From an uncultured Candidatus Saccharibacteria bacterium (GTDB taxonomy: Bacteria; Patescibacteriota; Minisyncoccia; Phycocordibacterales; EsbW-18): DNA of 64,000 bases. Under the pieces are notes generated by a model. That model searched no databases. It was not told the DNA's origin and saw only the letters and a list, made by a program, of their open reading frames with translations. Where the stretch lies: NCBI GenBank assembly GCA_964478705.1, contig CAYZIR010000005.1:508-64507 (forward strand), given 5' to 3'. Each line of letters starts with the position of its first letter. Position 1 is the first letter of the stretch. The translations under genes were made by a program, and so were the position numbers. This document shows, piece after piece, positions 1,420-57,950 of the stretch.

Positions 1420-1535
1420 ATAAAAGACACCCCAAAGACATTTTGTGAGACATTACTATCCACACCTTATACACAATGACTTTTTGAATGCAAAAAGTTT
1501 TTGTTCCCGAAAAAAATAGCGCCTGCCGTGGTATT

Positions 1536-3653
1536 ATGATTTTTATGATTCCCGATAAATTCCTGAAACCGTACAATCCGAAAGAAACCGAACCGGCTAT
1601 ATACAAAATCTGGGAGGAAAGTGACTATTTCAATCCCGACAATCTTCCCTCAGAAAACAAGGAGACGTTCACGATTATCATGCCTCCACCAAACGCCAAC
1701 GGCTCGCTCCACGCGGGTCATGCGGTGTTTGTGACCATTGAAGACTTGATTATTCGTTTTGAGCGTATGCGTGGAAAACGTGCGTTGTGGCTTCCTGGTG
1801 CGGATCATGCGGGATTTGAGACACAGGTGGTATACGAGAAGAAACTTGAAAAAGAAGGGCGAACCCGTTTTGGCATGGATCCGAAACAATTGCGTGAGGA
1901 AATCATGGAATTTACGCTCGCAAACAAATCATTCATGGAAGGCCAGCTACGCCAGCTCGGTGCATCGTGCGATTGGGGTCGCGAGAAATTCACGCTTGAT
2001 CCCGACATCATCAATATTGTCTACGATACGTTTGAAACTCTCCATAAGGACGGGCTGGTTTACCGTGGCAAAAAAAGCATCAACTGGTGCACAAAGCACC
2101 AAACCTCTCTCTCTGAACTTGAAACGAAGAGTGAGGAACGTGTCGATCCGCTCTACTACATGAAGTACGGACCGTTTGTCCTTGCAACCGTTCGCCCGGA
2201 AACAAAATTCGGTGACACCGCACTTGCAGTGCATCCCGATGATGCTCGGTACAAAGAATGGATTGGAAAAGAAATTGAGTTTGAGGGATTGATTGGCCCT
2301 GTGAAGCTTAAAGTGATTGCTGATGAGTACGTCGATCCTGCATTCGGTACCGGTGTCGTTAAGATCACGCCTGCTCACGACCCCAACGACTTTGCAATGG
2401 CACAACGCCACGATCTTCCTATTGTTGAAGTAATCGACCAGTATGGAAAGCTCAACGAGAAATGTGGAAAATATGCGGGGCTCAAAGTCGAAGAGGCGCG
2501 GGCAATCATCGCGCAAGATCTCGAAGCTGCGGGCATGCTTGAAAAAGTAGATGCTGAATACAGACACAGTGTGAAGAAGTGCTACAAATGTGAACGTATT
2601 CTTGAACCGCGCGTCCTCCCACAGTGGTTTGTGAATATGAAGCCACTCGCCGAGCCAGTCATTAAGGCGATTGAGCGCGATGAAATCACCTTCTATCCTG
2701 ACCACTATAAAAAGATCATGCTCCACTGGCTGACAAATATTGAAGATTGGAATGTTTCTCGCCAGATTGCATGGGGAATCCCGATTCCTGCATGGTACAA
2801 GGGAGACGAAGTGTGTATCAGCAAAGAAAGACCAAACGGAGATGGTTGGGTCGCTGAAACAGACACTTTCGATACCTGGTTCTCCTCGGGCCAGTGGCCG
2901 TTCGCAGTCCTCGGCTATCCAGAGAATGCGGATTATAAGAACTTCTACCCAACCCAGGTGATGGAGACCGCAGGAGAGATTATCTTTTTCTGGGTCGCAC
3001 GTATGCTTATGTTCGGTCTCTATCGCACCGGCAAACTCCCCTTCTCAACCGTGTACCTCCACGGTATCGTCACCGCAAAAGACGGTCAAAAGATGAGCAA
3101 GAGTAAAGGTAATGTCATTAGCCCGCTTGAGCTCTCTGACAAATATGGCACTGACGCCCTTCGCATGGGACTCACCATCGGCAACACACCTGGGACAACC
3201 ACTGCGCTCTACGAAGACAAAATCAAGGCGTATAAGCTTTTCTCGAATAAACTCTGGAACATTACCCGTTTCGTGCTTGAAAACACTGACAGCATGCCCG
3301 ACACAACGTCAGTCGATACACCAAGCGATACCGCGCGTCGAAATGAACTCGCGACACTCGTACAGGAAGTGACGACAGACATTGAAAACTATCGCTTCTA
3401 CATGGCGGGAGAAAAACTCTATCATTACGTCTGGCACACATTTGCGGACGATATCATCGAAGAGAGTAAATCGATTCTGAAGGGAGAAGATATCCCCGCA
3501 CGCGATTCCCGAAAGGCGCTCCTTATTGATATCCTGAAGACATCGCTGGCACTGTTGCATCCGTTTATGCCCTTCATTACCGAAGAGATTTGGGGACACA
3601 TGCCGGGAACAAATGGAAATCTCTTGATGATTTCGCCGTGGCCTCGCGCATAA
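1536..3653 (+). CDS. valS: Valyl-tRNA synthetase (short form without C-terminal coiled coil)
   Basis: PPPNANGSLHAGHA (HIGH-type) and KMSKSKGN motifs; ValRS-like editing/CP1 region. Start moved to ATG 1536 (MIFMIPDKF..) rather than 1488. Confidence 0.88.
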   Translation: MIFMIPDKFLKPYNPKETEPAIYKIWEESDYFNPDNLPSENKETFTIIMPPPNANGSLHAGHAVFVTIEDLIIRFERMRGKRALWLPGADHAGFETQVVYEKKLEKEGRTRFGMDPKQLREEIMEFTLANKSFMEGQLRQLGASCDWGREKFTLDPDIINIVYDTFETLHKDGLVYRGKKSINWCTKHQTSLSELETKSEERVDPLYYMKYGPFVLATVRPETKFGDTALAVHPDDARYKEWIGKEIEFEGLIGPVKLKVIADEYVDPAFGTGVVKITPAHDPNDFAMAQRHDLPIVEVIDQYGKLNEKCGKYAGLKVEEARAIIAQDLEAAGMLEKVDAEYRHSVKKCYKCERILEPRVLPQWFVNMKPLAEPVIKAIERDEITFYPDHYKKIMLHWLTNIEDWNVSRQIAWGIPIPAWYKGDEVCISKERPNGDGWVAETDTFDTWFSSGQWPFAVLGYPENADYKNFYPTQVMETAGEIIFFWVARMLMFGLYRTGKLPFSTVYLHGIVTAKDGQKMSKSKGNVISPLELSDKYGTDALRMGLTIGNTPGTTTALYEDKIKAYKLFSNKLWNITRFVLENTDSMPDTTSVDTPSDTARRNELATLVQEVTTDIENYRFYMAGEKLYHYVWHTFADDIIEESKSILKGEDIPARDSRKALLIDILKTSLALLHPFMPFITEEIWGHMPGTNGNLLMISPWPRA

Positions 3654-24558: not shown

Positions 24559-24630
24559 GGCCTGGTAGACAAGTGGTAAGTCGAGGGACTGCAAATCCCT
24601 TATGCGGGAGTTCGATTCTCCCCCAGGCCT
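24559..24630 (+). tRNA. tRNA-Cys (anticodon GCA)
   Basis: GGCCTGG/CCAGGCC acceptor, loop CTGCAAA, TTCGATT. Confidence 0.88.
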
Positions 24631-24667
24631 CATGGAGATAGTCATGGGTCATTAGTTTTGTTGATAT

Positions 24668-24755
24668 GCCCGGGTGATGGAATTGGTAGACATACAGGAC
24701 TTAAAATCCTGGGGCCGTGAATTCGGTCGTGTGGGTTCGATTCCCACCCTGGGCA
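24668..24755 (+). tRNA. tRNA-Leu (anticodon TAA), long variable arm
   Basis: GCCCGGG acceptor, loop CTTAAAA, variable arm GGGCCGTGAATTCGGTCGTG, TTCGATT. Confidence 0.88.
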
Positions 24756-24757
24756 CT

Positions 24758-24916
24758 CGGAGGAAATTTAAACATTTTGATCGACGGTGGGAATCGAAGG
24801 CCGGAGGCGCGCCATTGGTCTGAGCGCCGACCTGCCTGCCGGCAGGCAGGGGCGGGGTCGAGAGTACTTAGAATTTTAGGCGCATAGCGACTAAAATACT
24901 TGAGTTGCTCGTGACC
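24758..24916 (+). repeat. 159-bp tRNA-3'-flanking element bounded by 19-bp direct repeats of the tRNA-Leu(TAA) 3' end
   Basis: GATTCCCACCCTGGGCACT at 24739..24757 and 24917..24935. Interior ..GGAATCGAAGGCCGGAGGCGCG..GGGGCGGGGTCGAGAGTACTTAGAATTTTAGGCGCATAGCGACTAAAATACTTGAG..CGTGACC is homologous to the tRNA-Phe element. Confidence 0.75.
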
Positions 24917-24960
24917 GATTCCCACCCTGGGCACTTACAGAATATTTTCAAAATAGGGCA

Positions 24961-25011
24961 CTTTGTTGTAGAGTTGTTTGTACCACCCATATAGACAACC
25001 TATATGGGTGG
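24961..25011 (+). repeat. GGTTGT-repeat plus tRNA-Lys 5'-end fragment embedded in an 11-bp palindrome
   Basis: TTGTTGTAGAGTTGTTTGT then ACCACCCATA (= tRNA-Lys nt -1 to 9), forming the palindrome CCACCCATATAG-ACAACC-TATATGGGTGG. Confidence 0.5.
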
Positions 25012-25153
25012 GGCGTGCGGACCACATGGCGTAGATAGCTCGGGCTCCCATTTTCTCGTGCTCAAGCAAAAATAAGAACAAGCTCTTATTTTTGCTCTCC
25101 ACTCGAAAACACGCCCTCGCTTGAGAGACACACCGCGTGTCATCCTTACTAAA

Positions 25154-25226
25154 CCACCCATAGCTCAGCTGGTAGAGCAGCTCCCTCTTAAGGAGACGGT
25201 CGTAGGTTCGATCCCTACTGGGTGGA
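25154..25226 (+). tRNA. tRNA-Lys (anticodon CTT)
   Basis: CCACCCA/TGGGTGG acceptor, loop CTCTTAA, TTCGATC. Confidence 0.8.
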
Positions 25227-25284
25227 CAGCGTTTAGAAAAAGCTTGGCAACTTGTAATGATATGCGATTCGCCTTTTGTCTGTC

Positions 25285-25323
25285 TTTGTTGTAGGTTGTC
25301 TGTTGTAGGTTGTTGGTTATTTC
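25285..25323 (+). repeat. GGTTGT-type tandem repeat abutting the tRNA-Leu(TAG) 5' end
   Basis: TTTGTTGTAGGTTGTCTGTTGTAGGTTGTTGGTTATTTC followed immediately by the tRNA. Confidence 0.7.
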
Positions 25324-25405
25324 GGGCGAGTGGCGAAATTGGTAGACGCGCTAGCCTTAGGAGCTAGTGTCGCAAGACATGGAGGTTCGAGTCCTCTCTC
25401 GCCCA
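25324..25405 (+). tRNA. tRNA-Leu (anticodon TAG), long variable arm
   Basis: GGGCGAG/CTCGCCC acceptor, loop CTTAGGA, TTCGAGT. Confidence 0.88.
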
Positions 25406-25570
25406 CAAAACAGAGAGCCGAGTGCGTCAGCATTCGGCAATTTTGTTTTGCGCGATTGAGAGAGGGCTCGAAGGGCGGAACCCCGCAGAGCGAGGTGAGC
25501 CGGGTCGAGAAATTTTTACGAGCGACGGCGAGTAAAAAAATGTTCTTGGCCGAATTCTCTCGGCCAAAGC
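25406..25570 (+). repeat. tRNA-Leu(TAG) 3'-flanking element with degenerate direct repeat
   Basis: Hairpin CAAAACAGAGAGCCGAGTGCGTCAGCATTCGGCAATTTTGTTTTG, module GGGCTCGAAGGGCGGAACCCCGCAGAGCGAGGTGAGCCGGGTCGAGAAA, motif ACGAGCGACGGCGAG. Degenerate repeat TCTCTCGGCCAAAGC (25556..25570) versus tRNA 3' TCTCTCGCCCACAAAAC. Followed by a perfect hairpin 25569..25597. Confidence 0.65.
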
Positions 25571-39204: not shown

Positions 39205-42108
39205 TTACCCCTCCCTCACCACGAGGTTAAGGACCTTGTTCTTAATATAGACAATTTTGGCTATATCCTTGCCGTTAAGCCATTTTTCGATGTTTTCCTC
39301 GCCCCGAGCCAAGGCAAGAACGGTCGCTTCCTCGGTATCTCGAGAGCAGGTTATCGTTCCCCTGACCTTTCCATTGACCTGAATGGCTATAACGACCTCA
39401 GCCTCAACAAGCTTGTCCGAATCGAAGGTAGGCCACAAAGCCTCGTGAACTGATGACGTATTGCCCATGCTCTCCCAGAGCTCTTCCGTGAGGAACGGTG
39501 CGAATGGTGCCAAAAGGAGTAGGAGCGTAGTATATGCCGTGCGAGAAACAGCCGTCTCTTTTTCGATTGCATTCGTTAGAATCATGAGTTGCGAGACTGC
39601 TGTGTTCATACGAAGTGCTTCGATATCCTCCCCCACTTTCTTGATGGTTTGATTGAGGACCGTTTCAAGCTCAGGCGACAACACGACGTCCTCGACTCTT
39701 TCCTGCAGACGCGCAACGCGTTCAAGAAAGCGTCGTACACCAACGAGTCCATCGGTTGACCACGCGATCGCTTGATCGAACGGTCCCATGAACATCTCAT
39801 ACGTGCGGAGCGCATCTGCACCAAAGCGTTCAATAATGTCATCCGGGTTTACCACGTTCCCTTTCGACTTACTCATTTTCTCCCCGCCTTCGGCGAGAAT
39901 GAGTCCGTGGCTCGTACGCCGTTGGTATGGCTCAGATGTTGGAACAACGCCAATGTCGTAGAGAAACTTATGCCAAAAGCGCGAATAGAGAAGGTGAAGC
40001 GTTGTGTGCTCCATACCACCGTTGTACCAATCAACCGGAAGCCAGTGCTCAAGTTTTTTCTTGTCGGCGAGTACTTCCGCATTCTTCGGATCGCAGTAGC
40101 GAAGGTAATACCATGATGAACCTGCCCAGTTTGGCATAACATCGGTTTCTCGTTTCGCATTACCACCGCACGACGGACATGTCGTATTGACCCACTCATC
40201 CATGTTCGCGAGAGGTGAATCCCCTGTGTCAGTTGGTTCGTAGCGCTCAACGTGTGGTAGTTCTACCGGAAGGTCGGATTCGGAGACCGGCACCCATCCG
40301 CACGATTCGCAGTTGACCATTGGAATCGGTTCGCCCCAGTAGCGTTGACGTGAGAAGACCCAATCACGGAGTTTATATTTCGTCGTCCATGTGCCACCAA
40401 CTGCTTCAGTTATTTTTTTCCTTGCATCTTCACTGGCTAGACCATCAAATTGTTCAGAGTTGAGAAGTATTCCTTCACCAGTGTAAGATTGCTGACCGCC
40501 CACATAAAACTCCGCATATTTTTTGTGGTGTGGCCACGTAATCGTTGAAATAAGTTTGTCCTTTGAAACAACGATGAGTTCGTGTCTCCCCTCTTCTACT
40601 TCTGACTGTGAACGTTCTGTGGAGTTTAGAATAATTTCAATGGCAGGGCCGAGTGTTCGCTGATTTTTATTTTTTGTGTGTCGATATCCATGACAAGAAA
40701 TCATTGAGGTCATTGAATGCATGTTCACTTCAAAATCTGTGAATCCTGTTTCTTCAATAACCTCTCTGCGAACTGCGGTCAGAAGATCCTCGCCATCTTC
40801 AACTCCTCCACCCACCAAGTGGACATGATCTCCATCTTTAAGAAGGTAGAAGTTCCCCATGGTATCGTGAATGATTGCATCAACAGTTCGTCGGTTTAAC
40901 GTTTCGAGACCGGCACGCTCTTGGTGTATTCCCGCCCCTATTTCTTGATATGCGACTACCTGTCGCATAGGCAAATTAAATTTCTGTGCAAACGCGAAAT
41001 CACGTTCATCGTGTGCAGGGACCGCCATCACCGCACCGGTGCCGTACGAACCAAGCACGTAATCCGCAACATACACAGGAATCTCTTCATTGTTCGCAGG
41101 ATTGATTGCTGTAATACCTTCGAGCCGAACACCAGTCTTTTCTTTCCCTTCCGCGGTACGTTCCATTTCTTCCTTATTCTTTGCCTCTTCGATATATCGC
41201 AGAATCTCTTCTCTGTTCTTTATCGACTCATGACTAGCGACTAATGACTGCACCAAGGGGTGCTCAGGTGCTAAAACGATGTAGGTAGCGCCGAAGATGG
41301 TATCTGGTCTGGTTGTAAAAACAGTGATTTCTTTTTTCTCGCCCCCAGTAGCTAGAACCTGGAATCTGATCTCAGCTCCTTCGCTCTTGCCAATCCAATT
41401 ACGTTGTCCTGCTTTAGCCCGCTCAATATAGTCAACGGTGTCGAGGTCATCGTAGAGGCGTTCGGCGTATTTTGTGATCGCAAGCATCCATTGCTCTCGT
41501 TCGCGTTTCTCAACCTCCGTCCCACATCGCTCACACTTACCATCAACAACCTCTTCGTTTGCGAGACCGATTTTATCTTTCGGACACCAATTAATGGGAA
41601 CTTTTGATTTGTATGCAAGATCGTGTTTGAAGAGTTGCAAGAAAATCCATTGCGTAAAGCGGTAGTATGCGGGGTCAGTTGTGTTTACCTCACGCTCCCA
41701 ATCAAAGGAGAGTGCTAAGCGCTTCATCTGTGCGCGGTAATTGTCGGTATTTTCTTTTGTTACCTCACGTGGATCGCGTCCGACCTTGATTGCATAGTTC
41801 TCTGTAGGAAGACCGAAGGCGTCCCAACCAATTGGATAGAGCACATTCTCCCCTTGTCTGCGACGCTTACGAGCAACGACGTCGAGTGCAGTGTAGCCAC
41901 GAACATGACCGACATGGAGCCCTTCTCCTGACGGAAAGGGAAATTCGACGAGTAAGTATGTTTTCTTTTTATCCGCGCTATCGGACGCTTTGGGGGCACT
42001 CTTCTCAAAGATTTCGCGCCATTTCTCTTCAATCTGTTTGGAATCGTATTCGCGCATGAATAGCTTATAGCTTCTAGGTACGAGCGTGTAGGTAGGGACA
42101 TCATACAA
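39205..42108 (-). CDS. leuS: Leucyl-tRNA synthetase with inserted NUDIX hydrolase domain
   Basis: HVGHVRGY (HIGH), KMSKSKGNVV, CP1 editing domain (TTRPDT..YVLGSYGTGAVMAVPAHDERDFAFA). Inserted ~150 aa (aa ~385-535, nt ~40506..40956) contains Nudix box GGGVEDGEDLLTAVRREVIEETG. Confidence 0.9.
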   Translation of the reverse strand: MYDVPTYTLVPRSYKLFMREYDSKQIEEKWREIFEKSAPKASDSADKKKTYLLVEFPFPSGEGLHVGHVRGYTALDVVARKRRRQGENVLYPIGWDAFGLPTENYAIKVGRDPREVTKENTDNYRAQMKRLALSFDWEREVNTTDPAYYRFTQWIFLQLFKHDLAYKSKVPINWCPKDKIGLANEEVVDGKCERCGTEVEKREREQWMLAITKYAERLYDDLDTVDYIERAKAGQRNWIGKSEGAEIRFQVLATGGEKKEITVFTTRPDTIFGATYIVLAPEHPLVQSLVASHESIKNREEILRYIEEAKNKEEMERTAEGKEKTGVRLEGITAINPANNEEIPVYVADYVLGSYGTGAVMAVPAHDERDFAFAQKFNLPMRQVVAYQEIGAGIHQERAGLETLNRRTVDAIIHDTMGNFYLLKDGDHVHLVGGGVEDGEDLLTAVRREVIEETGFTDFEVNMHSMTSMISCHGYRHTKNKNQRTLGPAIEIILNSTERSQSEVEEGRHELIVVSKDKLISTITWPHHKKYAEFYVGGQQSYTGEGILLNSEQFDGLASEDARKKITEAVGGTWTTKYKLRDWVFSRQRYWGEPIPMVNCESCGWVPVSESDLPVELPHVERYEPTDTGDSPLANMDEWVNTTCPSCGGNAKRETDVMPNWAGSSWYYLRYCDPKNAEVLADKKKLEHWLPVDWYNGGMEHTTLHLLYSRFWHKFLYDIGVVPTSEPYQRRTSHGLILAEGGEKMSKSKGNVVNPDDIIERFGADALRTYEMFMGPFDQAIAWSTDGLVGVRRFLERVARLQERVEDVVLSPELETVLNQTIKKVGEDIEALRMNTAVSQLMILTNAIEKETAVSRTAYTTLLLLLAPFAPFLTEELWESMGNTSSVHEALWPTFDSDKLVEAEVVIAIQVNGKVRGTITCSRDTEEATVLALARGEENIEKWLNGKDIAKIVYIKNKVLNLVVREG

Positions 42109-45749: not shown

Positions 45750-48700
45750 TTACGAGCGGGTATTTTCGACTGTTTCTGGAGCAAATGCGTACGCACCACC
45801 AATTGATCGAAGAGAGCGTTCTTTCAGCATGTCGAGAACTCGCACAAGTGAAAGGCGAACTGACGTATAGGCTGAGTCATAACGTTCGTCAACACCATGA
45901 AGGAGCTCTGCGACGATTGATTCAAGTTCTTTATTCGAGAGATGGTAGGTCACTTCAGCGATGTGCGTATTCACACGGGTTCGCTCTTCTGCGCCCTCAA
46001 GTCGTGCACGATGTGCACTGTCGAGTTCAGAAACCACCTTGCGCATGAAGTCGGCGACCGGCTGTTCTTGATGCTTCAACATTCGAAGGAAGGTAAAGAC
46101 CTTTTTGTCTTCGCCTCGGACAATCCATTCAACAAAGATTGGAATCATCGAGAGTGTTGAGATGAAGAGTGATTCACGAACACGCTCTTTATCAAGAACC
46201 AACCAACCATCTTCACGAGGGAAACGACCCTTTGCGATTTCGATTACCTGCGAGAGGCGCTCGAGGGCTTTCTTTTCATCGTTCTCAACTGAATTGCCGA
46301 TGAGTTCTGCTCCATCATCAGAAACCAAGACTCGTGATACTCGTGCTTCGTTCTGAATGCGAGAATAATCGCGTCGAGCAGGTTGTTCGGTCATTCGGGT
46401 ATCAACAAACGCTGGTGTAGAGGTTTTCTCAACAACTGGTGTTGATACTGACGCAAGTGCATCTGGAGCTTGTGCTACCGGTCGTGAGAATGATTCATGC
46501 ATGCGTGATTCTTGTACAATTTCACGAATAGACTGAACACGGGCTGGCGCACTTGCTGTGACCGTATGTGCGAACTCTTCGTATGAGGCGAGAGGTTCAT
46601 GAGCAGACGATTCGTACTCAGCGTCCATAGATGGCGCTACGTTTGTGAATCGCTGTCCTGACTTGCGGAGAAACGCGTATACAACACCTGCTGAGATTGC
46701 CACGAGACCAAGAATAAAGAGAATGATTTGGACAATACTTGAGCCAAGACCAGTGTATGGAACTTGTGTGAGCGAAATCGATGCTCCCAAGACTTCTGGT
46801 TCAGAGAAGAGCACAACGCTCGGTCGGCGACGGTGTCCGCCACCCCCACCACCTCCATCATCATCGTCATCGTCATCATCATCATCGTCGTCATCTCCAG
46901 GAGTTTTGACAACAACACTACCCTTACATGCAATGCCACCACTTGGTCCAGTGAACGAAGCAATGTAAACAGTGTCTACCGTTGGCTTTGTTGTTGTTGA
47001 ACCATTCAGTGGAACTGGTCCGATACCCTGATCAATCGTCGCTGATGTGACATTCTTTGATGTCCACGTGAGTGTTACTGTCTCGCCACTCTGAATAGAG
47101 TTTGGACTTACATCGAGCGTACACTCAGGAACCGGCTCGCTTGAAGGAATAGTGAATTTCACACCTGCATTACAGTAGTTGCGCCCAGGGGTGAAGTTTG
47201 GATCAACCCAAAATGAGTACGTGCGACCTGGCTTGACCGGAACGTTCGTAACAGTTGCTCCGGTGATTCCGTCTTCACAATAGTAGTGAGGGCTTGCACC
47301 ATCAAGACAGGTTTTGAAGCGTGGGTCATCGTAGCGGTCGGTCGTACCGTCATCAAGGCGAATATTGTATGAGACCGCACCTGGAACTGGATTCCACGAG
47401 AGCGTGACGGTGTTTGTATCTGCAGGAAGTGTTCCTGACGGGAAGAGATTTGTTGGGGGAATACAGATGGGGCTGTCAGTCACCGTAATCGTGAGGGTCT
47501 GAGTAATCGCACATTCAGCACCGCTATTCGCAGATGTTGCCTTAACGAGGTATGTGTATGTACCAACCGCAGTAACTGTTCCCGAAATCGTTGCGCCATT
47601 GATCGAGAGACCTGGAGCAGCATTCACCGCTGTGATAACGATTGAGACAGGAGCGATACCACCCGACGTCGTCACCGTGTGTGAGAACGGAAGATTAAGA
47701 CCGGCAACCGCTGTGTTTGAACTTGTGATGGCTGGTTTTGCAGGACACTGGTTGGTCTGGCCAACAGTGATTGTAAAGACCTGACGTGTCGCACATGAAA
47801 GTGTGCTGTTACCACCGCTCATCGCAGTGACCTCGTAGGTGTACACACCAGGGGTCGTTGGCGTACCCGACACTGTCGAAGCACTCGTGTCGATCACCAA
47901 GCCCGGTGCAGCAGGACCAATAGGATTAATGCTGATTGAAATCGGATTCACACCGCCTGTGGTTGTCACTTTGTAGAAGTACGGAACACCAAGCATCGCT
48001 GTTGCTGAAGGAGTGCTTGTGATCGTCGGTTGAACAGGACACTCATTGACTCCGTCGCCAATGATGATTGTCAGAGTTTGTGTTGGACCACACGCAGAGT
48101 CACCATCAGCATTTTGTGCCTTGATCGAATAGGTGTATGTGCCGGTTTGTGTTGGCGTACCTGAGATTGTCTTACCGTTGATTGAGAGACCAGGAGCAGG
48201 ATTGACCGGTGTGATTGTTACAACAGTGCCAAGACCGCCCGCGGTTGTTACGGTGTGTGAGAAAAGCTGACCAACCTGACCCGATGCTGACGCAGGACTT
48301 GTGATGGTCGGCTGACCTACCGGACACTGTGGAGGAGGCACGATCGTAACTGAACACTGTACGGTCTTTGTCTGACTCTTAAACGTTACTGCAACCGTCG
48401 CAGTTTTAGTTCCAACAGTTGTGTATGTGTGAACGACTGGGTTTGTCGTCGAACCATCAGGGAACGTATCATTACCGTTCCAAAGATATGAGAATGCACC
48501 CGTAACACCCGTAATTGTCGCAGTCCATGTTACTGGTTCGCCAATTTTTGCAGGGTTCGGGAGACCGACACACACAAGATCCCAATCAGGATCCTGCGAA
48601 CAGAGTGGGAGCTGCTGGTAGACCTGACCTTTGATGAGCTTTGCAGACGATGAATAGTTTGAGTTTCCTGGGAATGAGACGACATCGAGCTGATAGCGAC

Positions 48701-49199
48701 ATGACGGAAGGTCGACGCGGAAGCTCTTGGTCTGACCAGGGCCAATTGTTTTTTCGTCAGAATCAAAAAGTGTCTGAGGAATCTGGTGAATCGGATCTGA
48801 ATAGACTTGGAAAACTTTCAATGCAAATGGGAACGAACATGTTGGGTGTTCGTTGGTAATTGAGACAGTACCACCTGCAAGATCAAAAGTGTTGTAGATC
48901 TTGAAGTACTGGTCACGAAGCTGACGCAACTCAAAGTCGCTTGCTGGAATACAATCGTCGACTGTCGTTTCTTGACCACCGTCGCCAGGGGCAGGATCGA
49001 CGGGTTCGTCTTCTTTTGGTGCGGGTTCAACAGGTGTAGGCTCTGGTGCTGGGTCAGCCTTCTCTTCTTTTGTTTCTTCGGCAGTCGTGCCACTCGTGTC
49101 TCCACTTTCTTCAGCGGTTACGGCGAACGGAATTTGCCAAGCAACAAAAACCACAAACGCGAGAATTGCGAGTGTTTTGAGGACTGAAATACGTGTCAT
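45750..49199 (-). CDS. Large single-pass surface protein: signal peptide, Pro/Glu linker, four Ig-like repeats, FnIII-like domain, poly-Asp/poly-Gly tract, TM helix, ~330-aa cytoplasmic domain
   Basis: Four ~95-aa repeats (QCPVGQPTITSPASASGQVGQLFSHTVTTAGG..; ECPVQPTITSTPSATAMLGVPYFYKVTTTGG..; QCPAKPAITSSNTAVAGLNLPFSHTVTTSGG..). D13-G7-HRRRP tract encoded at ~46800..46900; VPYTG then TM then RK; start set at MTRISV (49199). Confidence 0.7.
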   Translation of the reverse strand: MTRISVLKTLAILAFVVFVAWQIPFAVTAEESGDTSGTTAEETKEEKADPAPEPTPVEPAPKEDEPVDPAPGDGGQETTVDDCIPASDFELRQLRDQYFKIYNTFDLAGGTVSITNEHPTCSFPFALKVFQVYSDPIHQIPQTLFDSDEKTIGPGQTKSFRVDLPSCRYQLDVVSFPGNSNYSSSAKLIKGQVYQQLPLCSQDPDWDLVCVGLPNPAKIGEPVTWTATITGVTGAFSYLWNGNDTFPDGSTTNPVVHTYTTVGTKTATVAVTFKSQTKTVQCSVTIVPPPQCPVGQPTITSPASASGQVGQLFSHTVTTAGGLGTVVTITPVNPAPGLSINGKTISGTPTQTGTYTYSIKAQNADGDSACGPTQTLTIIIGDGVNECPVQPTITSTPSATAMLGVPYFYKVTTTGGVNPISISINPIGPAAPGLVIDTSASTVSGTPTTPGVYTYEVTAMSGGNSTLSCATRQVFTITVGQTNQCPAKPAITSSNTAVAGLNLPFSHTVTTSGGIAPVSIVITAVNAAPGLSINGATISGTVTAVGTYTYLVKATSANSGAECAITQTLTITVTDSPICIPPTNLFPSGTLPADTNTVTLSWNPVPGAVSYNIRLDDGTTDRYDDPRFKTCLDGASPHYYCEDGITGATVTNVPVKPGRTYSFWVDPNFTPGRNYCNAGVKFTIPSSEPVPECTLDVSPNSIQSGETVTLTWTSKNVTSATIDQGIGPVPLNGSTTTKPTVDTVYIASFTGPSGGIACKGSVVVKTPGDDDDDDDDDDDDDGGGGGGGHRRRPSVVLFSEPEVLGASISLTQVPYTGLGSSIVQIILFILGLVAISAGVVYAFLRKSGQRFTNVAPSMDAEYESSAHEPLASYEEFAHTVTASAPARVQSIREIVQESRMHESFSRPVAQAPDALASVSTPVVEKTSTPAFVDTRMTEQPARRDYSRIQNEARVSRVLVSDDGAELIGNSVENDEKKALERLSQVIEIAKGRFPREDGWLVLDKERVRESLFISTLSMIPIFVEWIVRGEDKKVFTFLRMLKHQEQPVADFMRKVVSELDSAHRARLEGAEERTRVNTHIAEVTYHLSNKELESIVAELLHGVDERYDSAYTSVRLSLVRVLDMLKERSLRSIGGAYAFAPETVENTRS

Positions 49200-49273
49200 A
49201 TATGCGTTACTCATAGTCTGTAGAAATAAAACCCACACCAGTAATCGTAGAATCAATTATACACCTAATAATA

Positions 49274-55556: not shown

Positions 55557-57950
55557 TTAGCGCACCTCCCATCCCTTTCCGCGAATCTCATCCTCAATCT
55601 TACCCATGATCTCACTCACCTCAACATCAGAGAGCGTTTTTTCGTTCGATTGAAAGACGATGTGATATGCGTATGATGTTCTTCCCTCTTTGGTGAATGT
55701 ATCGAAAAGATCCAACCGAGCAAGAAGTTTGCCAGCATGACTTTTGATGACGCCTTCGAGATCTTCTGAGCTGTTGGTTGTTGGTTGTTGGTTGTTGGTT
55801 CCCCCGACCCATACTGCAATGTCACGAAGGATAAAAGGATAGACCGAGATCGGCGCGAATGTCATGTTTGGCAAACGTGGCAAGTCGCCGTACGAGTCAG
55901 GAGTTGGAAGCGATTTGATCGTTTTTGAAAGGGATGCGGTGGCAATGTTTGCTCGCTTCATCCATACAAGCGGAGAAGTGGAGGTCGTCGTCACTGCTGC
56001 AATTGCAGCATCAAGATCTCTGCCCTTTTCTGTCGCAATCCCAATTTGTTGTTCCTCACCAGTCTTACTAAATATGGTGCCAATTTCGAAAATTCGTACA
56101 GCATCGACGCCAATGAGCGGCCTATTTTTTTGGTTGAGCTCAAGGGCAGCCTTTAAACCTTCTACGAGTGACGAACGAAGATATTTTTTATCATTAGCAA
56201 TCGGGTTCGCTACTTCAATTTCACCATCGTCTTGAAATGAGTATGTCGACACCTCGGAAAAGCCGGCATCAACAAGCGCTCGGCGGACGAGCGCTTTGTA
56301 GTATTCGTTCTTGTTGACCGCAGGTGTGAATCCGTCGAAAGGCAACGGTGTTGATGGAATCGATTCAAGACCTTTGAGCCGGCCGATTTCTTCGATCAAA
56401 TCTTCTTTGATACGGATGTCGATGCGCGGCGCGGGAACTGTCACCACAAAGCGTGGTTCGTTGTTCGTGATGATGCGACGATAGCCGACGATATTTTCAA
56501 ATGCCTTGGAACCAGAAAGATCTTCAATGACGACTTCGCCCTTATCCCATTTTCCTGATGCATGAAGGATTTTCCCTTCACCAAGATAGATGCCGTTGTG
56601 ATCGATACCTGCCGAGAGCTTTGTCCCTGCCATGAATTCATGCGAGACACTTGTCTGACGAACTTGGTCGATACCAAGACTTTCAATATGTTCTGTCGAT
56701 CCATCACCCTTTCGATCTGAGAATACGATGTCTCCCGCACGAAGATCATTTGCCTCAACCGGCGCACTAAAAACAAACTGATCAACAGCCATACGCGGAA
56801 TTGCGATTCCAGCTTGTGCGTAGAGATATGCGACCAAAGATGAGCAGTCGAAAGCTCTTGGCGCATCACTCAAAACACTTGCACCGTATTTGTATGGAGC
56901 GCCAACCAAGGTTGGAGCAAGTTTCAAAATCTGTTCAAGCGGCTGTATGTAGGTGTATTCAAAACCAAGACGCTTGAAGTAGTCTTCGACCTCACTTTGA
57001 GAACACGTCGTGCCGAGCGCTGTGTTAATTTCCGAAAGTGAGACGCCAACAACGTAGAGATTCTTTTTGTTTGGATACGACTCAACAATGTCTTGTGCGA
57101 CTTTTCCATTCGCGAGCTCTTCAATGAGTGCCGAAAGACGCTCCATAGCAATCGCAGTAAGTTCAGGACTGATTCCCTGCTCGAATCGGATTGACGCATC
57201 GGTGCGAAGTCCGAGCTTCTTTGATGTCTTGCGAATGTTTACGGGATCAAAATTGCAGACCGAAAGAACGATGCGTGTCGTGTTCGCATCAATACCCGAT
57301 GTCGAACCGCCTTTTACGCCAGCAATATCGAGTGCTTTCTCGCTGTCGCTGATAACAAGAACGTCTGGGTTCAGTACGAATTCCTTACCATCAAGGGTGG
57401 TGATTGTTTCATCTTCTTTTGCTGAACGTATTGAAAGAGCTGTTGGTTGTGAGTTGTTGGTTGTGAGTTTGTCATAGTCGAATGCGTGAACCGGCTGACC
57501 TGTTTCGAGCATCGTGAGGTTCGTTGCATCAACAACGTTGTTGATCGAACGCTGTCCGTGTGCAGCAAGTTTTATTTTGAGCCATTCGGGAGATTCGCCG
57601 ATTGTGACACCTTCGACATAGCGCTTCATTGCGCGTGGAACGAGCTTTGAGTTTTCGATGGTAAGCGAAAGATGATCGCTTGTTGAAATACCTGAGTCGG
57701 TTTTTGGATGAGCCTCAGGAATGTTTGCTGTGACATTGAGAAGCGCGGCGACTTCACGAGCGATACCGTGGTATGAAAAACCATCGTGGGAACGGTTTGG
57801 AAGCACTTTGATATCGAGAATCGTATCGCTGCCGTGTGACTCGGTTCCGTCGATTTCAAATGCATGCATCGTAATCGTGCGCGACAAATCAGCAACCGAT
57901 GGAAGCGGTTTGTCGAAATATTCCTGAAGCCATGCGTAGGAGAATTTCAT
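55557..57950 (-). CDS. pheT: Phenylalanyl-tRNA synthetase beta subunit carrying an inserted NlpC/P60 domain and two in-frame microsatellite insertions
   Basis: B1 and B3/4 (..PEWLKIKLAAHGQRSINNVVDATN..), B5 (..VEDYFKRLGF..), B6/7 (..VTVPAPRIDIRIKEDLIEEIGRLKG..), FDX-ACB C-terminus. aa ~340-490 (nt ~56481..56933) carry APYKYGAS..FDCSSLVAYLY..AGDIVFS..HNGIYLGEGKILHAS. Repeat-coded peptides TTNNSQPT (nt 57441..57464) and GGTNNQQPTTN (nt 55770..55802). Confidence 0.85.
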   Translation of the reverse strand: MKFSYAWLQEYFDKPLPSVADLSRTITMHAFEIDGTESHGSDTILDIKVLPNRSHDGFSYHGIAREVAALLNVTANIPEAHPKTDSGISTSDHLSLTIENSKLVPRAMKRYVEGVTIGESPEWLKIKLAAHGQRSINNVVDATNLTMLETGQPVHAFDYDKLTTNNSQPTALSIRSAKEDETITTLDGKEFVLNPDVLVISDSEKALDIAGVKGGSTSGIDANTTRIVLSVCNFDPVNIRKTSKKLGLRTDASIRFEQGISPELTAIAMERLSALIEELANGKVAQDIVESYPNKKNLYVVGVSLSEINTALGTTCSQSEVEDYFKRLGFEYTYIQPLEQILKLAPTLVGAPYKYGASVLSDAPRAFDCSSLVAYLYAQAGIAIPRMAVDQFVFSAPVEANDLRAGDIVFSDRKGDGSTEHIESLGIDQVRQTSVSHEFMAGTKLSAGIDHNGIYLGEGKILHASGKWDKGEVVIEDLSGSKAFENIVGYRRIITNNEPRFVVTVPAPRIDIRIKEDLIEEIGRLKGLESIPSTPLPFDGFTPAVNKNEYYKALVRRALVDAGFSEVSTYSFQDDGEIEVANPIANDKKYLRSSLVEGLKAALELNQKNRPLIGVDAVRIFEIGTIFSKTGEEQQIGIATEKGRDLDAAIAAVTTTSTSPLVWMKRANIATASLSKTIKSLPTPDSYGDLPRLPNMTFAPISVYPFILRDIAVWVGGTNNQQPTTNSSEDLEGVIKSHAGKLLARLDLFDTFTKEGRTSYAYHIVFQSNEKTLSDVEVSEIMGKIEDEIRGKGWEVR

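Follow-up and report, generated by a model that had tools for sequence, protein, structure and literature searches.

A Nudix hydrolase domain nested in the CP1 editing domain of a leucyl-tRNA synthetase from Patescibacteria

Aminoacyl-tRNA synthetases are among the best-studied enzymes, and their accessory domains have been catalogued mainly for eukaryotes. Here we describe a leucyl-tRNA synthetase (LeuRS), encoded by leuS on a 64,000-nucleotide stretch of contig CAYZIR010000005.1 from an uncultured Candidatus Saccharibacteria bacterium (the whole stretch is hereafter called the window), in which a Nudix hydrolase domain is nested within the CP1 editing domain. The closest described enzymes, the LeuRS of Thermus thermophilus (1h3n/2byt) and Escherichia coli (4aq7), share with the window enzyme the domain order, the HIGH and KMSKS signatures, the Zn-binding Cys motifs, the threonine-rich motif and the editing Asp. 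The T. thermophilus enzyme, however, has a short loop at residues 363–374, where the window LeuRS has a 154-residue Nudix domain. NadM-Nudix (PRK05379), a bifunctional NMN adenylyltransferase and Nudix ADP-ribose pyrophosphatase, likewise combines an enzyme of the HIGH-motif nucleotidyltransferase fold with a Nudix hydrolase in one polypeptide, and the substrate of its hydrolase is a nucleotide that belongs with the chemistry of the partner enzyme (PMC7824862). It is nonetheless an end-to-end fusion that involves another Nudix subfamily and another partner, whereas the window Nudix domain is nested in a loop. The IleS family with an N-acetyltransferase (NF040702, ileS_w_GNAT), compared here by family name only, is likewise a class Ia synthetase with an extra catalytic domain; it carries GNAT where the window LeuRS carries Nudix, and it appears among the weak NCBIfam matches of the window LeuRS. 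No description of a Nudix domain in LeuRS was found among the roughly 8 million papers and preprints searched, and the CP1-nested architecture seems to be undescribed; databases already hold automatic domain annotations of Nudix-bearing LeuRS.

The inserted segment comprises ~154 extra residues (aa 369–522), which replace a loop of 6–16 residues (T. thermophilus 363–374) in alignments with P0033, P0035, P0047 and T. thermophilus LeuRS. Against close homologues that lack it, the segment sits exactly between ‘...P(M/V)RQV(V/I)’ and ‘(S/P)Y(T/S)G(E/D)G.L.NS’, and it begins 15 residues past the end of the PAHDERD motif. The PF13603 editing-domain model is correspondingly interrupted at about position 144 of 185, while in insert-less homologues it continues to position 183. 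Pfam NUDIX (PF00293) recognises the segment both within the complete LeuRS (39.7 bits, E = 6e-10) and when it is excised (43.0 bits, E = 6e-11), above a gathering score of 21.1 bits. Its Nudix box, GGVEDGEDLLTAVRREVIEETGF, is the sole match to GX5EX7REUXEEXGU in a six-frame translation of the whole 64 kb. An AlphaFold2 model of the excised segment, built on a 43-sequence alignment, reached a predicted local distance difference test (pLDDT) score of 92.6 and a predicted TM-score (pTM) of 0.86. In the model of the full-length LeuRS (pLDDT 87.5, pTM 0.78) the Nudix part scored ~87–94; the C-terminal linker of the insert has low pLDDT. The insert is thus a genuine Nudix-fold domain, complete and with its catalytic box preserved.

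These results bear out a first-pass annotation of this DNA, made from the sequence alone, in so far as it had recognised ~150 extra residues with a canonical Nudix box in LeuRS, and the structure prediction that it proposed as a check supports the Nudix fold. The span given there, 40506–40956 (aa 368–517), falls almost entirely within the insert, although V368 belongs to LeuRS proper. Its placement of the insert between CP1 and the catalytic core was imprecise: the insert lies inside CP1, and ~40 residues of the editing domain follow it. The alternative raised there, that the segment might be the leucine-specific domain of LeuRS, can be set aside, as the segment does not align to that domain, which is absent from the window enzyme.

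The host gene is contained in a single uninterrupted minus-strand open reading frame (39205..42108) that reads through both insert junctions. Translation most likely begins from the ATG at 42057, where the alignment to T. thermophilus LeuRS begins (E = 1.7e-222 against 1h3n). The protein passes the equivalog cut-off of TIGR00396 (leuS_bact) with 982.8 bits against 548.4, and its CP1 editing domain scores 217 bits against PF13603. The signature motifs of the synthetic and editing sites (Table 1) are invariant in a 61-sequence LeuRS alignment, as are G339 and G341 of the GTG region, and aa 523–562 also align to the C-terminal 40 PF13603 positions of insert-less homologues. With its signature motifs invariant and its TIGR00396 score far above the cut-off, the host looks competent for both aminoacylation and editing. 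Residue 727 aligns to both residue 584 and residue 637 of the T. thermophilus enzyme, and ~52 residues (T. thermophilus 585–636) are therefore missing from the window LeuRS; these make up the leucine-specific domain that normally precedes KMSKS and that is present in T. thermophilus. The KMSKS region of the window gene (39865–39900) thus lacks this domain of the T. thermophilus and E. coli enzymes, and so do relatives of the window LeuRS.

Table 1 Features of the Nudix-bearing leuS and of a related locus. Positions are those of the window except in the last row; motif coordinates were checked by translation.
Feature	Residues	Position	Strand	Basis or remark
leuS, bacterial-type leucyl-tRNA synthetase, 950 aa		39205..42057	(-)	ATG at 42057, stop at 39205-39207
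HIGH signature HVGH, synthetic site	48-51	41905..41916	(-)	Translation; H48, G50, H51 invariant in 61 homologues
CP1 editing domain, N-terminal part	219-368	40954..41403	(-)	PF13603 on aa 219-372, profile positions 1-144 of 185
Threonine-rich editing motif TTRPDT	248-253	41299..41316	(-)	T248, T249, R250, D252, T253 invariant, 61-sequence alignment
Editing-site motif PAHDERD, catalytic Asp350	347-353	40999..41019	(-)	P347, H349, D350, R352, D353 invariant
Inserted Nudix hydrolase domain, nested in CP1 loop ‘site B’	369-522	40492..40953	(-)	
Nudix box GGVEDGEDLLTAVRREVIEETGF, metal-binding E432, E435, E436	417-439	40741..40809	(-)	Exact GX5EX7REUXEEXGU fit
CP1 editing domain, C-terminal part after insert, QSYTGEGILLNSEQFDGL...	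523-562	40372..40491	(-)	Aligns to T. thermophilus 375 onward
KMSKS signature, synthetic site	727-731	39865..39879	(-)	K727, S729, K730 invariant in 61 homologues
NUDT2-like Nudix		L028 6971-7555		Between nusB and rnc (L028, one locus examined in detail)

The architecture recurs among relatives. An insert of 160–180 residues at the same loop (site B) is present in 103 of the 120 best LeuRS homologues and absent in 17, the source names of the homologues including Patescibacteria, Parcubacteria/Paceibacterota, Kaiserbacteria, Taylorbacteria and Minisyncoccia. A survey of LeuRS from the Candidate Phyla Radiation (CPR), suggested in the first-pass annotation, thus finds the same insertion widely. 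An exhaustive profile search with the insert family, covering 1.84 billion cluster representatives, gave 203 clusters with E-values up to 1e-30 and 1065 when the limit was relaxed to 1e-10; in nearly every long protein among the best 150 profile matches, LeuRS sequence flanks the Nudix domain on both sides. When the 173-aa insert was the sole query, a word-indexed search recovered just one 159-aa Nudix protein and not even the window’s own protein. This reflects the sensitivity limit of that search and not rarity of the domain, as searches with the full-length protein and the exhaustive profile search gave hundreds. When GTDB species genomes were scanned with the Nudix subtype of the window, 76 of the 80 loci lay inside leuS, under titles that name Adler-, Kaiser-, Magasanik-, Peri- and Gracilibacteria and ‘Saccharibacteria’. 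The insert also occurs, unexpectedly, with canonical boxes in metagenome-assembled genomes of gut Bacilli and in Clostridium sp. CAG:524. If free-standing forms and the CP1-remnant proteins of Clostridia described below are set aside, every host found is a LeuRS, and the position is always within CP1. Two observations concern the genetic code: the leuS genes of L034 and L051, which are of the Gracilibacteria type and bear the same Nudix insert, read through only under code 25, and a Trp where Gly is expected in P0270 is a UGA translated with the wrong table.

Two CP1 loops receive insertions, namely site B, used in the window, and site A, the first β-hairpin just before the threonine-rich motif. 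Some LeuRS hold two or three Nudix copies, in A-A-B, A-B, B-B or A-A arrangements, and other LeuRS of Patescibacteria carry a Ham1/ITPase-like or a Ser-hydrolase (α/β-hydrolase) domain at site A, with or without a Nudix domain at site B. Homologues with extra site-A domains or Nudix copies include P0063, P0023, P0081, P0121, P0013 and P0122–P0134. Clustering of 265 domain copies resolved several subtypes with mutual identity of only ~25%. The large subtypes mix site-A, site-B and free-standing members, and a protein with several copies has them from different subtypes. The window domain falls in a minor subtype, marked by ‘RHTKxKNQ’, ‘SEVEEGxH’ and ‘ITWxHH’, in which 14 of the 15 members lie at site B and the remaining one has a site that could not be assigned.

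Over the same 265 copies, the metal-binding glutamates are the most conserved residues (E436 in 100%, E432 in 99% and E435 in 97%), followed by residues specific to the family (K462 98%, R389 94%, N465 93%, E488 89%). A strict Nudix box is present in 200 copies and the E..EE core in 243. Given this conservation of the metal ligands, the module is probably catalytic, and the overall pattern indicates selection for hydrolysis together with binding of an anionic ligand.

The nature of that ligand was approached through structural and profile neighbours. Foldseek returned an Aquifex diadenosine tetraphosphate (Ap4A) hydrolase as the top match of the insert, and the top five of a profile search against the PDB were AvrM14-A, AvrM14-B, 2azw, the lupin Ap4A hydrolase and the Aquifex Ap4A hydrolase. 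After 2azw, the best structural match, the next-best neighbours, which share the Nudix fold and box, include Aquifex 3i7u, Mycobacterium tuberculosis Rv2985, T. thermophilus Ndx1 (an Ap6A hydrolase), DIPP1/DDP1, AvrM14 and RppH. With these hydrolases of diadenosine polyphosphates (ApnA), inositol polyphosphates and RNA caps, however, the insert has only 14–20% identity, and its NCBIfam scores are far below cut-off. RppH is the most frequent NCBIfam family, matched by 41 of 43 inserts, all far below its cut-off; for the window insert, the equivalog cut-off of RppH/NudH (PRK00714) was not reached (21 bits against 116), nor were those of the MutT 8-oxo-dGTP diphosphatases TIGR00586/PRK10776 (12.7–13.2 bits against 97.9 and 148). 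The conserved residues R389, K462, N465, E488 and H492 are specific to the insert family. ApnA hydrolases presumably carry a marker Tyr ~16–18 residues downstream of the Nudix box. The window domain has Y458 at +19 and the family consensus is F/Y at +16/17; an aromatic residue here is not specific.

The substrate lead is therefore a polyphosphate-bridged compound, compatible with Ap4A. The first-pass proposal of Ap4A hydrolysis would agree with the data: ApnA, Ap6A, DIPP and cap hydrolases are over-represented among the structural and profile neighbours, while no subfamily cut-off is reached. Among the candidates, we place dinucleoside or nucleoside polyphosphates of the ApnA/NpnN type, generated by the synthetases themselves, in front, as a tentative choice. 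Non-canonical NTPs, which would match the Ham1/ITPase domains at the neighbouring CP1 loop of relatives, are possible at a somewhat lower level of confidence, and other nucleoside diphosphate-X compounds account for what remains.

Several observations bear on how closely the module is tied to its host. Around 18 free-standing proteins of the same family (154–199 aa) start with Met, lack LeuRS flanks and are scattered among the inserted copies in the domain tree. In P0033, a 799-aa LeuRS without insert, the locus is collinear with the window over 11 genes at 46–76% protein identity, including ychF, DUF5671, leuS, a sigma70_r4/HARE-HTH gene, DUF8128, yceG and gyrA. This collinearity identifies the P0033 gene as the orthologous housekeeping leuS, and the Nudix module as dispensable. 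No free-standing Nudix gene lies within 10 kb of the insert-less leuS.

The histories of insert and host also disagree, which suggests that the cassette has been exchanged. The four nearest LeuRS cores (75–77% identity) bear inserts that are just 20–25% identical to that of the window, whereas the nearest inserts (46–59%) sit in more distant cores (61–67%), with a correlation of -0.28. The GC content at third codon positions (GC3) is lower in the insert (0.376) than in the remainder of the gene (0.505), a difference that, together with the mismatch of insert and core, would fit replacement of the cassette. Within the LeuRS body, no position convincingly co-varies with the presence of the insert (maximum Jensen–Shannon divergence 0.46, and no group-specific conserved residue). 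Direct or inverted repeats that flank the insertion were sought, with no matches beyond chance level, and nothing suggests an intein or a mobile element at the DNA level. Free-standing members, an insert-less orthologue, discordant histories, GC3 and the lack of co-varying positions and of flanking repeats together suggest a cassette on a loose tether, with repeated insertion or exchange in its history.

A different arrangement is found in Clostridia. A large family in Clostridia/Lachnospirales, of ~270–290 aa, combines a remnant of CP1 (PF13603 positions ~81–143), in which the editing motifs are degenerate, with the same Nudix domain (loci L083–L092; proteins P0214 and P0272–P0389). The genes occur on hundreds of contigs of up to 1.4 Mb, where they are annotated just as ‘NUDIX domain-containing protein’; we considered whether they might be fragments of UGA-recoded genomes and rejected this, as they are real genes on such contigs. 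The gene ends a conserved cluster that encodes a LysR/HTH regulator, a MoaA/viperin-like radical-SAM protein, two CYTH proteins, a ‘variant radical SAM’ protein and further gene products of unknown type. In one lineage (L083–L086) the cluster has a large serine recombinase as its neighbour and splits a Zip gene; both features suggest a mobile island.

We give an even chance to an explanation in which the insert is an active, semi-autonomous Nudix pyrophosphohydrolase cassette that occupies a permissive CP1 loop and acts on a diffusible polyphosphate-bridged or non-canonical nucleotide, leaving the chemistry of LeuRS unaltered. The domain would be a Mg2+/Mn2+-dependent pyrophosphohydrolase that cleaves a diffusible nucleotide with a pyrophosphate or polyphosphate bridge, and neither aminoacylation nor proofreading would gain a further step from it. 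The loop in CP1 would act as a permissive docking site, as is suggested by the relatives that carry two to three Nudix copies of different subtypes at two loops, or Ham1 or a Ser-hydrolase at the other loop, and by the NlpC/P60 domain nested in the β-subunit of PheRS encoded in the same window. Docking would give the hydrolase the expression level of an essential enzyme and a ribosome-proximal location in a very small genome. A cassette family with free-standing members would have been inserted, duplicated or exchanged repeatedly at the two CP1 loops during the evolution of Patescibacteria.

This explanation has to accommodate a number of contrary points. In ~20% of close homologues the Nudix box is a variant, with the first Glu replaced by Gln or His and the Arg lost, and catalysis may therefore not be universal in the family. 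The best structural match, 2azw, is an uncharacterised protein of the MutT/nudix family from Enterococcus faecalis; it is a separate protein with 17% identity and unknown function, and gives no substrate. No Nudix subfamily-level model reaches its cut-off. Hosting by LeuRS only, and always in CP1, is more specific than expected of a random passenger, which vertical inheritance could explain. In some ‘Saccharibacteria’ loci a separate NUDT2-like Nudix (‘WTIPKGHIEEGE’) lies ~0.8–2 kb downstream of the Nudix-bearing leuS, which weakens the case for the nested domain as the Ap4A hydrolase of the cell. Finally, the retention of a CP1 remnant with Nudix in the Clostridial proteins hints that the pair may work as a unit, and the persistence of the pair away from the synthetase, in a nucleotide-modifying context, gives a functional CP1-Nudix unit a non-trivial probability. 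The downstream Nudix genes near ‘Saccharibacteria’ leuS were considered as members of the insert family and rejected, being NUDT2-like and of a different family. Besides the example in Table 1, equivalent NUDT2-like open reading frames are present in L020, L023, L025, L027, L029, L033, L035, L043, L061, L065 and L067.

Among the alternatives, a scavenger coupled to its host is the one closest to the first-pass annotation: the Nudix domain would hydrolyse Ap4A, Ap3A and other NpnN released from the LeuRS synthetic site, the tether allowing their destruction at source. ApnA-type hydrolases do dominate the characterised structural and profile neighbours, RppH/NudH is the top NCBIfam family, and an aromatic residue (Y458; F/Y in the family) lies 16–19 residues past the box, near the presumed marker Tyr. 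Aminoacyl-tRNA synthetases are moreover the main cellular source of Ap4A, which Nudix enzymes cleave asymmetrically (PMC13627108), and the host is exclusively LeuRS. Ap4A can, however, diffuse, and it is LysRS that is cited as its main producer and not LeuRS (PMC13627108). Tight coupling to LeuRS by-products also finds no support in a syntenic orthologous leuS without the module, in the exchange among paralogous subtypes and in the lack of a co-varying body position. No equivalog cut-off is met, Ham1 and α/β-hydrolase domains occupy the neighbouring loop, and some ‘Saccharibacteria’ loci encode a further Nudix, NUDT2-like, close to leuS. Furthermore, cassettes of ~25% identity are interchangeable and up to three paralogues co-occur, which suggests several substrates and not a single by-product. 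We consider the coupled scavenger unlikely, and assign the same low standing to a broader reading, in which CP1 is a docking platform for exchangeable nucleotide-hydrolase cassettes, CP1-Nudix forms a unit of its own and the cassettes act at the translation machinery, either on tRNA acceptor ends or on toxic or signalling nucleotides.

CP1 normally holds the 3' acceptor end of tRNA. An RNA-end enzyme would exploit this, with CP1 presenting the acceptor stem of tRNA(Leu) and the Nudix domain removing a 5' triphosphate or Np4 cap in the manner of RppH, or a 3'-pyrophosphate lesion, and so serving in the repair or maturation of tRNA ends. RppH leads the NCBIfam matches, the neighbours include the decapping Nudix enzymes AvrM14, oomycete WY-Nudix, g5R and E. 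coli RppH, and the domain is always in the tRNA-end-binding CP1, at two different loops; in addition, the stand-alone Clostridial proteins keep a CP1 remnant with Nudix. That remnant, however, has lost the threonine-rich motif, the GTG region and the catalytic Asp, so that it probably no longer binds A76. All RppH scores fall far short of the cut-off and for the most part extend over the box only, insert-less orthologues function without the module, and the idea of a pyrophosphorylated tRNA is borrowed from toxSAS biology. We regard this reading as distinctly improbable. A non-catalytic Nudix fold, serving as ligand sensor or as an extra surface for binding tRNA or protein, for instance in compensation for the leucine-specific domain, is less probable still: the window box is fully canonical and the metal-binding glutamates are the most conserved residues of the family (97–100%). 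Insert-less relatives (~795 aa) also lack the leucine-specific domain, and hence nothing needs compensating. Pre-transfer editing, by hydrolysis of mis-activated aminoacyl-adenylates, had also been put forward in the first-pass annotation, and its sole support is the proximity to the editing domain. Nudix substrates are defined by a nucleoside-diphosphate-X linkage, whereas in an aminoacyl-AMP an acyl-phosphate anhydride involves a nucleoside monophosphate and there is no nucleoside diphosphate-X, which makes this chemistry atypical for Nudix. It is also unnecessary, because the CP1 site for post-transfer editing is intact, and the module is dispensable in orthologues; we give the proposal very little credence. 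An artefact, whether an assembly chimera or a mis-called reading frame that joins a Nudix gene to leuS, is refuted by how often the arrangement recurs. One frame runs through both junctions, the 950-aa protein is 100% identical to P0002, encoded on an independent Logan contig with the same neighbour genes, and more than 100 homologues from many samples have the same architecture; the full-length model is confident across the junctions, which have no flanking repeats.

Some further features of the window are recorded here. PheRS β (55557–57950, minus strand), with B3/4, B5, core and FDX-ACB domains, is the second synthetase in the window with a nested hydrolase: an NlpC/P60 cysteine-hydrolase domain lies within B5 (~56466–56933). 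This domain scores 60.3 bits against a gathering threshold of 23, and both the catalytic Cys (FDCSSLV) and His (HNGIYLG...ILHAS) are present. A class Ia aminoacyl-tRNA synthetase at 1488–3653 (plus strand) has just 721 aa and only a remnant of the editing domain (PF13603 97–146). At 45750–49256 (minus strand), a 1168-aa open reading frame has no Pfam match, and its C-terminal third is 58% identical to a protein at the syntenic position in L001. Ten tRNAs are present, four of them clustered at 24559–25406 (plus strand; Cys, Leu-UAA, Lys and Leu-UAG), and an Rfam scan of the window detected no RNA family besides tRNAs.

With the nested Nudix domain, a synthetase essential to bacteria houses a second, unrelated catalytic domain within its editing domain, an arrangement conserved over much of the CPR. 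It makes a link of synthetases with nucleotide-polyphosphate metabolism open to direct test, shows by natural example which CP1 loops are permissive, which is of use for engineering, and illustrates how ultra-small genomes pack functions by means of nested domains. The docking-platform reading, if true, would amount to an unrecognised layer of tRNA or nucleotide quality control built into a synthetase, spanning Patescibacteria and some reduced-genome Bacilli; action on tRNA ends would there mean removal of polyphosphate or cap lesions, and the alternative targets would be nucleotides that interfere with aminoacylation. Should the module only be a passenger, it would still be a clear example of recurrent domain hosting. 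If instead its targets are tRNA ends or alarmones made by synthetases, translation would have a new kind of quality control.

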